From contig CAWDXL010000006.1 of the NCBI GenBank assembly GCA_963806325.1, forward strand, positions 1 to 61,382: a DNA stretch of 61,382 bases, read 5' to 3'. Source of the stretch: Candidatus Parcubacteria bacterium. GTDB lineage: Bacteria; Patescibacteriota; Minisyncoccia; Phycocordibacterales; JAKAEA01. Positions 58,870 through 61,382 of the stretch are shown piece after piece. The notes beneath the pieces were generated by a model that saw nothing but the letters and a program-made list of their open reading frames with translations, was not told the origin of the DNA and did not search any database. The translations under genes and the position numbers were made by a program. Every line of letters begins with the position of its first letter. Position 1 is the first letter of the stretch.

Positions 58870-61382
58870 GAATGTAAGGGCATATGGTGGATGCCTTGGC
58901 TTGAAAAGCGATGAAGGACGTGGCTGGCGGCGATACGCTTGGGGGAGGTGCCTAGCAACCGTTATATCCCAAGATGTCCGAATGAGGAAACTCCTGCATT
59001 CGAATGCAAACGCGTGCGCTTGACGTCTGACGATGCTCACCCAGGGAAGTAAAACATTTCAGTACCTGGAGGAAAAGAAACCAATCAAGAATTTCCTTAG
59101 TAGCGGCGAGCGAAAAGGAAGAAGCCCAAACCTAGCCCTCAACTTAGCTCAGCAATTGGAACAATCTGTTTCTACGTTGAGTTGATGGCTGGGGGTTGTA
59201 AGACAACAACTTCACTATTTATAGTGAGAAGAGTTAAAAAATTATTTGTTAACAGAAGCTGCTGGAAAGCGGCGCCCCAGTGGGTAATAGTCCCGTACGT
59301 GAAAATCAAATAATCTCTTTTGTTGTTGTTCTTGAGTACCTCGAGACACGAATGGCTCGGGGGAATCTGCCGGAACTAACCGGTAAGGCTAAATACTTTC
59401 AAAGATCGATAGTGAACTAGTACCGTGAGGGAAAGGTGAAAAGCAGCCCGGAAGGGCAGTGAAATAGACCTGAAACCATATGCCTACAAGGAGTCGGAGC
59501 GGGCGCGCAATTGCGTTCCGTCACGGCGTGCCTATTGAAGAATGAGCCAACGAGTTGATGCATGCTGCAGGCTAAGGGCGAGAGCCTGGAGCCACAGGGA
59601 AACCGAGTGTGAATAGCGCGAAATTAGTAGTATGCATCAGACCCGAAACCAGAGCGAGCTACCCATGTGCAGGGTGAAGTACTTCGAAAGAAGTATGGAG
59701 GCCCGAACGGTTATGTCGTTCAACGCATTCCGATGACATGTGGGTAGAAGTGAAAAGCTAATCGAGCCTGGTAATAGCTGGTTCTCTCCGAAATAGCTTT
59801 TGGGCTAGCGTCGAGATGTTCCTCTGGAGGGGTAGAGCACTGGAAGGTTTTGACAGGGCGAAAGCTCGCAAAACCTATCAAACTCCGAATACTCGAGAGT
59901 CAAGAGTCTGGCAGTTAGACTGTGGGGGCTAAGCTCCATTGGTCAAAAGGGAAACAGCCCGGATCTCAATTTAAGGTCCCTAAATCTATGCTAAGTGCAC
60001 TTAAGGTGGTGAAAATTCTCTAAACAATGAGGATGTTGGCTTAGAAGCAGCCATCATTTAAAGAAAGCGTAACAGCTCACTCATCGAGAGATTCTCGCGC
60101 CGAAGATAATCGGGGCTAAGCATAGTACCGAAACTGAGGATTATATCTTTCTTCGGAAAGATATAGTGGTAGGAGAGTATTCCATATCTGCGATGAAGGT
60201 AAAGGGGTGACCCATACTGGAGCGTTATGGAAGTAAGAATGTTGGCACAAGTAACCACAATCAGTGTGAAAACCACTGACGCCGAAAGATCAAGGTTTCC
60301 TTGGCAATGACAATCAGCCAAGGGTTAGTCGGCCCTAAGGGGATGGCGAACGCCGCACCCGATGGACACATGGTTAATATTCCATGACTTTTATGTTATT
60401 TGATGGGAGGACGGAGTGTAGTATCGTAAGCACATTATTGGATTGGTGTCCGTGCTTTAAGGGGGGCTTCCAGGAAAATCCGGAAGCACGCCGCAAGGCG
60501 ACATCCAAGTGGAGCGGAAATGTTGAGGGGCGACCTCGAGCTGATTTTACGAAAGCACGCTTCCAAGAAAATTCCCTAAAATTAACAACATAGAAACCGT
60601 ACCGCAAACCGCCACAGGTGATCAGCTCGAGTAGAGCAAGGCGAACGGGTGAGAGATCCCCAAGGAACTCGGCAAAAAAGCAGCCGTAACTTCGGAATAA
60701 GGCTTGCCCTTCAGCAATGGAGGGGCCGCAGCTAAAGTATGCTTGGCAACTGTTTATCAAAAACACAGCTTCCTGCGAACTCGAAAGAGGATGTATAGGA
60801 GGTGACACTTGACCAATGCCAGAAGGTCAAACAGCGACGTTCGTATGTCGCAAGATTATATCAAGCTGATTGTTGTAAGCCCTGGTGAATGTCGGCAGTA
60901 ACTATAACGGTCCTAAGGTTTGGGCATTATCCGCAAGGATGAATCCAAAGGATTGGGACTGATTACAGATTGTGAATTTGATGAATATAGAGTAGCCGTA
61001 ATAGTCATACAAGAGGAATTAATTAAAAATGCTGCCCATTTCACGAAAGTGAAGTGTTCACATCTAACTATATGCTTAGAAATCTGAGTATGTCACGGTA
61101 CTTCGCAAGAAGTAACAATCCGTGAACGCAAGACCATTAGCAGGAAAGACTTGAATCGCAAGATTCGAGAATCCCCAGAAACCAAACGTTAGGTCCCGAG
61201 TTAGTCCTCTAGGACGAATCGAGGGGAAGATAGAGTCCGTACTGCATGGCGACATGCAGCTTACAACAATAGCGAAATTCCTTGTCAGGTAAGTTCTGAC
61301 GCGCACGAATAGTGTAATGACTGAGCAACTGTCTCGGGGACTTGCCCGGTGAAAATACAATACCGGTGAAGATGCCGGTTAC
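58870..61382 (+). rRNA. rrl: 23S rRNA (5' part; continues beyond window)
   Basis: GGTGGATGCCTTGG, AGTACCGTGAGGGAAAG, GTACCGCAAACCG, GGAACTCGGCAAA, GTAACTATAACGGTCCTAAGG and TAGCGAAATTCCTTGTC conserved blocks. Confidence 0.99.
60920..61270 (+). ncRNA. 351-nt group I-like intron/insertion in 23S rRNA at E. coli ~1931, no ORF
   Basis: Interrupts CCTAAGGT/AGCGAAATTCC; Q-like CATTAGCAGG (61135-61144), R-like CAGAAACCAAACG (61176-61188), S-like GAAGATAGAGTCC (61226-61238) and P9 hairpin CTGCATG-GCGA-CATGCAG. Confidence 0.85.

Follow-up and report, generated by a model that had tools for sequence, protein, structure and literature searches.

The stretch of DNA analysed here (the window, 61,382 nucleotides, nt) is one whole contig of the 921-kb, 23-contig assembly of a Candidatus Parcubacteria bacterium, and its last part carries the single 23S rRNA gene found in that assembly, which begins at 58864 and is cut off by the contig end at 61382; no contig of the assembly contains the 3' third of the gene (model positions beyond 2069). 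An insert of 351 nt (60920-61270, + strand) splits the gene exactly between U1931 and A1932; it is a group I intron whose guanosine-binding pocket and last base are the subject of this report. The Rfam bacterial large-subunit (LSU) rRNA model bridges 60919/61271 with one 353-nt insertion. The 5' exon ends at 60919 with ...CGGTCCTAAGGT and the insert starts at 60920 with TTGGGCATT; the insert ends at 61270 with ...CTTACAACAAT and the exon resumes at 61271 with AGCGAAATTCC, the exon context being ...CGGUCCUAAGGU before the insert and AGCGAAAUUCC after it. The contig ends 112 nt past the intron, where the assembly may have broken because of further introns or strain variation.

The L1931 junction is identical in about 150 distinct L1931 introns that we collected. 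Escherichia coli numbering was counted from the known modified positions Psi1911/1915/1917 and m5U1939, and the insertion site is reportedly the I-CpaI-type L1931 site (Everett 1999), which also lies inside the long I-CeuI recognition sequence. An earlier reading of this DNA from its letters alone (the sequence-only reading) had named the I-CeuI sequence; that statement stands, the site itself being corrected to the I-CpaI-type L1931. The same reading had described an ORF-less group I intron at L1931, and three results agree with it: the junction position, the absence of any open reading frame (ORF) longer than 55 amino acids on the + strand inside the insert, and the match to the Rfam group I model that it had proposed to search with (Intron_gpI, RF00028; 61011-61259, 33.8 bits, E 5.8e-7), which lies below the gathering score of 50. 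The insert folds with a minimum free energy of -97.7 kcal/mol (z = -5.6 versus 100 shuffles), and its group I core is complete from P1 to P10, every helix having been checked base by base (Table 1).

The guanosine pocket

The G-C pair of P7 and the terminal G of the intron (omega, the last intron base) are treated as invariant in group I introns. In the window intron the G-C guanosine-binding pair of P7 is not present. The R element reads CCCCAGAAACCAAACG against the consensus UUCAaAGACUAAAcG and the S element GAAGAUAGAGUCC against gAAGAUAUAGUCu, and in the register of P7 (G61178-C61238, bulged A61179, A61180·C61237, A61181-U61236, C61182-G61235) the pocket purine is A61180, the equivalent of Tetrahymena G264, facing C61237, the equivalent of C311. 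The resulting A·C is no new Watson-Crick pair. Of the changed G-C pair suspected from the letters alone, the replacement of G by A on the R side stands, whereas on the S side the pocket C is retained; the difference noted there (GAGUCC for UAGUCC) is real but lies two or three positions off that C.

Guide pairings and the last base

The 5' end of the insert had been described as folding on itself rather than giving an obvious P1 with the exon. The self-fold is there: UUGG (60920-23) pairs with CCAA (60945-48) around AUCC-GCAA-GGAU, and in the relatives the sequence of this stem changes while its pairing is kept, e.g. UCUCUGUU/AACAGAGA, UGACCA/UGGUCA and UCUGAUAC/GUAUCAGA. P1 does exist, however, its guide having been found by homology in an alignment (A5) of the first 170 nt of 32 L1931 introns, about 110 nt downstream of the 5' splice site and not beside the 5' hairpin. 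The canonical L1931 guide in this alignment, GYUGCCUUAG, stands just before P2/P3 and pairs by a G·U1931 wobble, by CC with G1930/G1929 and by UUAG with the upstream exon; the AAAUGCUGCCCAUUU of the window aligns with it, and it matches the window's own GCUGCCCA. In the window P1 consists of the wobble U60919·G61034 together with C61035-G60918 and C61036-G60917, a short helix (3 bp) unless the segment 60953-58 also binds the exon, and P10, also of 3 bp, joins GCU (61031-33) to the first bases of the 3' exon, AGC (61271-73). The spacer of about 110 nt between splice site and guide is a family-specific insertion made of the covarying hairpin, the conserved AAGGA and a segment that is homologous to UUGGGA (60953-60958) of the window and reads YURGGR in the relatives. 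A guide directly after the 5' hairpin was considered and rejected: the base opposite U1931 would be A, then GGA, and no P1 forms. The succession of AAGGA and YURGGR after the hairpin (60948-60958 in the window) is found at the same place in about 20 relatives of the alignment, and YURGGR could pair either with exon UCCUAA, which might make it part of a split guide, or with the bases that directly follow the guide.

From the guide pairings the 5' splice therefore falls after U60919 and the 3' splice before A61271. A T flanks both junctions, and the insert can formally be written as 60920-61270, ending in U, or as 60919-61269, ending in A; the earlier statement that it ends in U or A and never in G was confirmed on reading the sequence, and the lack of omega-G was borne out as well, no boundary giving a G with the exon intact. 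Since P1 and P10, together with the homology of the family, fix the 3' splice site before A61271 (A1932), omega is U61270, and on these pairings the true boundaries are 60920-61270. Two other boundaries were rejected. The first, 60919-61269, would make omega A and place the 5' splice after G1930, but in 43 relatives with an A pocket (described below) the base before the terminal U is A, C or U whereas the U itself never changes, P10 and the U·G wobble are compatible with the chosen boundaries alone, and with the rejected ones P9.0 is fully paired in 23/43 introns compared with 34/43 in the register chosen. The second would take G61272 as omega (intron ...AAUAG) and gives a perfect P9.0 as in the closest relatives, but it deletes A1932 and G1933 from the rRNA and conflicts with P10; we keep it only as the trace of a likely history of AG slippage. 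In the chosen register one of the two P9.0 pairs of the window forms (U61240-A61269) and the other does not (A61241·A61268), and the terminal U is present.

Table 1. Features of the intron and its flanking exons, in window coordinates.
Feature	Position	Strand	Basis or remark
5' exon of 23S, ends at U1931	60900..60919	+	Rfam LSU alignment; U60919 = 5' splice-site U
Group I intron, 351 nt, ORF-less	60920..61270	+	
5' hairpin directly after splice site	60920..60948	+	pairs checked; conserved A-AGGA motif (60948-60952) next in every relative inspected
Second guide-like segment UUGGGA	60953..60958	+	6 bp with exon UCCUAA (60911-60916), or 4 bp with CCCA 61035-61038
Peripheral hairpin, P1 loop region: GACU(G)AUUAC with GUAAUAGUC	60957..61006	+	pairs checked
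Internal guide GCU-G-CC	61031..61036	+	pairs checked; homologous to GYUGCCUUAG in alignment A5
P2 hairpin UUUCAC-GAAA-GUGAAG	61039..61054	+	
P3 5' strand AUCUAAC	61062..61068	+	7 bp with 61188-61194 (GUUAGGU)
P4-P5 domain	61073..61142	+	P4 61073-78/61137-42, one U·U mismatch; P5 61083-85/61131-33
P5a and P5b	within 61073..61142	+	P5a 61093-98/61120-25; P5b 61099-61114 with GCAA loop
P6 hairpin, 8 bp, GCAA loop	61150..61169	+	site of LAGLIDADG ORF in relatives
P7 5' strand G-A-A-A-C	61178..61182	+	Rfam alignment, pair columns of covariance model R1
P3 3' strand	61188..61194	+	
P8: outer CCC/GGG, inner GUCC-UCUA-GGAC	61195..61226	+	covaries in relatives
J8/7 and P7 3' strand (AAGAUAGAGUCC)	61227..61238	+	
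P9.0 5' strand (U61240, A61241) and P9 hairpin CUGCAUG-GCGA-CAUGCAG (61242-61259)	61240..61259	+	
3' tail CUUACAACAAU, U61270 = omega	61260..61270	+	
3' exon of 23S from A1932 on	61271..61382	+	contig ends inside gene

Outside the intron, two stretches of 23S domain I (59140-59180 and 59212-59232, about 41 and 21 nt) are extra relative to the Rfam bacterial LSU model and look like helix extensions, not introns.

Pocket and last base in the L1931 family

Relatives were collected by BLAST-level searches of 400 genomes of the order and with R1, a covariance model of the 3' core whose structure was set by hand because RNAalifold did not recover P7 from 7 sequences. R1 was run on 120 loci retrieved through the interrupted 5' junction and on 48 retrieved through A-type R and S motifs, with U or C allowed as the partner, the pattern scan covering one genome per species. 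A further pattern, GAGGAATTAATTAAAAA, was abandoned, as in genome contigs this AT-rich string matched 120 unrelated loci. The counts in Table 2 are distinct L1931 introns with a reliably aligned R element, and they are not frequencies, since the targeted scan enriches the A type; rows combining an A·C pocket with omega-G were set aside as a divergent compact family whose R element is misaligned by R1.

Table 2. Pocket pair and last base of distinct L1931 introns.
Pocket pair	Last base	Introns
G-C	G	25
G-C	A	7
G-C	C	1
G-C	U	1
A-U	U	43
U-A	C	3
U-A	U	1
A·C	U	1 (window)
G·U	G	one further row

The last base is U in 43/43 introns with an A-U pocket and G in 25/34 with a G-C pocket. The A-U relatives (G161, G185, G109, G274 and more) have the R element CAGAAACC, the S element GAGUUC and the end ...U↓AGCG, where the arrow marks the splice site. 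The relatives of the window that fall in the same order, whatever their pocket, are metagenome-assembled genomes (MAGs) of the candidate phyla radiation (CPR, Patescibacteria), with the submitter labels Paceibacterota, Taylorbacteria, Vogelbacteria or Saccharibacteria, and the A-U/omega-U class spans MAGs of many CPR labels, together with a few under the names Desulfobacterales, Gammaproteobacteria or Bdellovibrionales that may have been binned wrongly. Introns of the L1931 family occur commonly in CPR 23S rRNA genes. Members of the family without an ORF are common, and the window intron, too, is without the single-motif LAGLIDADG gene.

A second class with an altered pocket consists of four introns (L211:773-1060(-), L255:244-344(-), L140:1134-1244(-) and L198:1344-1623(-)) with R = CAGAUACC and S = AUGGUAC, which gives a U-A pocket pair. 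Three of them end in C (...GAUC↓AGCG, an unambiguous boundary) and one in U, and a P9.0 of 4 bp abuts the last base. Omega-G is missing here as well (C in three, U in one), and we count this class in favour of a pocket that can be re-specified.

Departures from omega-G are also found with the canonical pocket. G-C introns ending in A lie at L222:5886-6193(-), L138:440-549, L142:460-568, L184:2282-2637, L196:650-1462(-) and L225:1247-1550(-), among other places, several of them with a 4-bp P9.0 (UUCG/CGAA) directly before the splice site, and L167 and L156 end in C and U, respectively. These nine introns (A in 7, C in 1, U in 1) speak for the possibility that ligation is independent of omega altogether, the pocket not reading the last base, P9.0 and P10 placing the 3' splice site, and any nucleophile, water included, serving in the first step. 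Such a mechanism has been suggested for natural omega-A introns such as Cbu.L1917 of Coxiella burnetii, described as self-splicing without omega-G by Raghavan et al. 2007 (J Bacteriol 189:6572), and it is plausible for the G-C/omega-A introns whose 4-bp P9.0 abuts the splice site. For the window intron we judge it distinctly unlikely: it leaves unexplained why the pocket changed to A-U with Watson-Crick pairing kept, why U is found in 43/43 A-U introns while the preceding bases vary, and why the U-A class prefers C, and P9.0 of the window is weak, not reinforced.

At one Actinomycetota locus (L238) R1 matches twice, at 1109-1294 and 1914-2080, about 800 nt apart, both matches ending in the 3' exon AGCGAAAUUCCUUGUCGGGU, one with G and the other with A as last base; the target region may be duplicated there, or the introns may stand in tandem.

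Signs of function in the A-U class

The catalytic core strands are invariant across the 43 A-U/omega-U introns. P8 and P9 are paired in 95.8% of cells, with 11/14 pairs changed on both sides and controls far lower, a figure to be read with the caveat that the alignment was fitted to the model. In P9.0 the two bases before the terminal U pair with J7/9 in 76/86 cells, compared with 40.6 ± 4.1 in shuffles (0/2000), the pair types being GC, AU, UA, GU and CG and the register the one seen in omega-G relatives; across the 43 introns the terminal U is constant, yet the base that precedes it is free to vary. The CPR homologs that the sequence-only reading had proposed to collect thus show covariation in P8, P9 and P9.0. 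P9.0 is not known to have a role beyond docking the 3' splice site, and from these patterns we conclude that the 3' splice site of the A-U class is under selection.

Both A-U relatives that were checked for a gene, L132 and L145, carry in P6 an intact LAGLIDADG_1 gene of 171-173 amino acids (L132:351-866, L145:1017-1538), whose ORF runs through the 5' strand of P7 (...K S S E T K R). The pocket base is there the third position of a Glu codon (GAA/GAG), so that G-to-A is silent, and because the two codons are synonymous the protein does not impose the pocket A. Invariance, covariation, P9.0 and the intact ORFs together argue that the altered class is functional and that its members are predicted to splice.

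These observations bear on the possibility that the intron is an unspliced or crippled relic, kept in the mature 23S as an expansion segment, or else excised by a nuclease to leave a fragmented 23S. Such a relic would account for both changes falling at exactly the residues that canonical splicing needs, and the window copy adds to these its mismatched A·C pair, a weak P9.0 and the U·U of P4, while the lack of an ORF means that no homing selection acts on it; a precedent at the same site is the L1931 intron of Simkania negevensis, reportedly unspliced (Everett et al. 1999), and in Tetrahymena the G264A ribozyme is inactive (PMC2860135). Yet the 43 introns with the same A and U have an invariant core, covariation is seen in their P8 and P9 and most of all in P9.0, and the ORFs checked are intact. 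Moreover, of 46 core columns with a conservation of at least 93% in 44 relatives, the window departs from the family at 2 (61190 and 61237), and the first of these (U61190) is compensated on the other strand of P3, leaving one uncompensated deviation. The gene is the single 23S gene found in the assembly, the site is functionally central, and rRNA insertions of CPR bacteria are generally reported absent from transcripts (PMC11270868). A relic of this kind therefore seems unlikely to us, and by its conserved columns the window copy is not decayed. The degenerate intron that had been offered as one option is accordingly weakened, and the non-canonical ribozyme fits best among the three that the sequence-only reading had named, its splicing being a prediction.

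A copy with features of both classes

The window copy combines the A and the U of the altered class with the C of the canonical pair. The partner base is U in all 43 A-type relatives, and C61237 is unique among the 44 A-type sequences; a metagenome scan for a second A·C intron found none, its single match being a chance one beside a ribosomal protein gene. The nearest relatives, G043 (L006:2606-2917) and G227 (L128:162-458), are ORF-less L1931 introns from the same bacterial order with 83% identity to the window over intron positions 29-118, and both are canonical, with R = CAGAGACC, S = GAGUCC and the end ...AAUAG↓AGCG. They differ from the window in the G at the pocket, in the end ...AAUAG and in the guide. 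The guide CGCUACCC of these two sisters (L006:2722-2735, L128:~268-281) has A, not G, opposite U1931, so that a U-A pair or a mismatch would take the place of the usual U·G wobble.

A tree was built from 122 usable columns of the 3' core, the pocket pair and omega being masked. It joins the window to G227 and G043 (support 97/96) in a clade that lies beside or within the A-U assemblage, and a single A-U clade that excludes the window was not rejected (approximately unbiased test, p-AU 0.57-0.77). The 122 columns are too few to show several independent coupled switches of pocket and omega, and a sign test on 3-4 pairs was not significant. The three introns share architecture, pocket-partner C and the tail GCUUAYAA; J8/7 of the window (GAUAGAG) follows the A class, the sisters reading GAAAGAG, and elsewhere the window differs from both sisters throughout (74% column identity).

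The tail of the window, CUUACAACAAU↓AGCG, holds (C)AAUAG↓CG, which is the sister sequence AAUAG↓AGCG minus one AG of the tandem AGAG. The first two bases of the 3' exon being AG, omega could change between G and U if one AG were gained or lost at the junction, and we infer that slippage by one AG may be a route between the omega-G and omega-U classes. The window copy would then be a mixed, possibly transitional state, the data being compatible with either direction of change and with recombination at the same site.

The same junction invites the suspicion of an artefact, namely that the true sequence is canonical and like that of the sisters (G-C, ...AAUAG↓AGCG), and that an AG was lost and a G-to-A error introduced, or that strains were joined in a chimera. 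The difference of one AG of the tandem AGAG, the contig end 112 nt downstream, the mixture of sister-like and A-class-like states and the singleton C61237 would all fit. However, two independent errors would have to strike exactly the two linked residues and give the states found in 43 independent assemblies, J8/7 follows the A class and not the sisters, and with 74% column identity the window is not a lightly corrupted copy of either. We regard an artefact as highly improbable, and polishing of the sequence is unlikely to restore G at A61180 or U61270, because the 43 relatives carry the same two states.

Comparison with known introns

Michel et al. 1989 (Nature 342:391) are said to have changed the specificity of the Tetrahymena ribozyme with G264A:C311U, and Been & Perrotta 1991 (Science 252:434) reportedly found adenosine/ATP to be preferred by the A-U mutant, which then also required a corresponding change at omega for ligation to be restored. 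Both studies are cited in PMC5192423 and PMC9971707, and the latter, a 2022 review, says of the engineered change to adenosine specificity that it "is not observed in nature". The engineered form (with or without G414A) changes the same second P7 pair after the bulged A from G-C to A-U and changes the last base too, and it supports one pocket serving both steps. Unlike the natural class it is laboratory-made and works with 2-aminopurine, or with adenosine/ATP and omega-A, whereas the natural class has omega-U and the window only the G-to-A half of the pocket change.

The 43 A-U/omega-U introns (e.g. L132, L145, L129) share with the window the site, the 5' hairpin with AAGGA-YURGGR, the guide GCUGCC, R = CAGAAACCAAACG, J8/7 = AAGAUAGAG, the P9 sequence and the terminal U. 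In contrast to them the window has C and not U as the partner and no ORF, where L132 and L145 have LAGLIDADG_1 in P6, and the tree groups it with the G-C/omega-G pair.

The intron Cbu.L1917 reportedly lies at L1917, ends in A and has a canonical pocket; from this type of natural 23S intron, a G-C pocket with an end other than G, the window is set apart by its pocket, which is not G-C. The IB4 intron of S. negevensis (Everett et al. 1999, J Bacteriol 181:4734), which reportedly may stay unspliced, and those of Thermotoga and Synechococcus (PMC1995217) occupy the same L1931 site, a position treated in other bacteria by Haugen et al. 2007, and share the association with single-motif LAGLIDADG genes; no changed pocket or omega is reported for these three, which were compared by description only. 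Tsurumaki et al. 2024 (PMC11270868) define the CPR class 23IS7 as group I insertions at 23S position 1931, often with LAGLIDADG_1, and classify CPR insertions with Rfam. A term search of that paper found no mention of guanosine, and 'omega' only in the Raghavan title of the reference list, and the study does not appear to examine the pocket or the terminal base. Full-text literature searches, whose coverage is incomplete, found no description of a natural A-U pocket.

A proposed re-specified pocket

Fold and relatives show the insert to be a genuine group I intron in which two of the sequence features that define the group are missing, the two losses being correlated and shared across the family. 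Based on these data we propose that the window intron may belong to, or stand at the edge of, an L1931 lineage whose P7 pocket no longer specifies guanosine, and we think it somewhat probable that the window copy splices through such a pocket, re-specified away from guanosine. By sequence and homology P1 forms between the exon end GGU and the guide G-CC with its U·G wobble, and a nucleoside other than guanosine would attack the 5' splice site from the A pocket, either uridine/UTP or, as in the engineered Tetrahymena mutant, adenosine/ATP. The terminal U would then dock in the same pocket by Hoogsteen-type pairing with A61180, O4 or O2 accepting from N6-H and N3-H donating to N7, and P9.0 and P10 would position it for ligation of the exons.

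The bound G is said, from the work of Michel in 1989, to donate two hydrogen bonds from its Watson-Crick edge to O6 and N7 of the pocket G. An A in the pocket would by contrast offer a donor, N6-H, and an acceptor, N7, which on chemical grounds should exclude G and suit U, A, C or 2-aminopurine, and the natural combination of an A-U pocket with a terminal U fits a Hoogsteen U·A contact. In the A·C of the window the Hoogsteen face of A61180 would be the same as in A-U and the pair weakened or less stable.

Several points weigh against this proposal. The splicing of the window copy and of its A-U relatives is itself deduced from their sequences, and Tetrahymena G264A, assayed with omega-G and GTP, has <0.003 of wild-type activity in vivo (PMC2860135). 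Only one of the two P9.0 pairs is present in the window, P4 has its U·U mismatch, and the singleton C61237 may be a sequencing error or a harmful mutation that arose recently. With a pyrimidine bound where a purine normally sits, the ribose would be displaced. Few independent events underlie the coupling of pocket and omega, one origin of the A-U class is not rejected, and the L1931 intron of Simkania 23S is reported to remain unspliced (Everett 1999).

More tentatively, and somewhat short of what we would call probable, a natural ribozyme lineage, mainly of CPR bacteria, may have re-specified its pocket to another nucleoside, the A-U form reading a terminal U with UTP/uridine or ATP/adenosine as the cofactor, with the window copy as a half-way state. 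Such a state may show the route of the switch, one transition in P7 and one gain or loss of an AG, and the U-A/omega-C class would suggest that the pocket is evolvable more generally. As the only mixed state found, the A·C form of the window lends itself to experiments on the importance of each of the three changes.

Such introns will be overlooked or wrongly placed by annotation pipelines that insist on omega-G or on the Rfam gathering score. A diverged natural family with a changed pocket and a matching last base, if true, would be a natural test of the single-pocket model and would provide new ribozyme scaffolds, with other cofactor specificity, for tools of RNA circularisation and trans-splicing. 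It would also mean that the maturation of rRNA in these tiny CPR bacteria is possibly tied to a nucleotide other than GTP.

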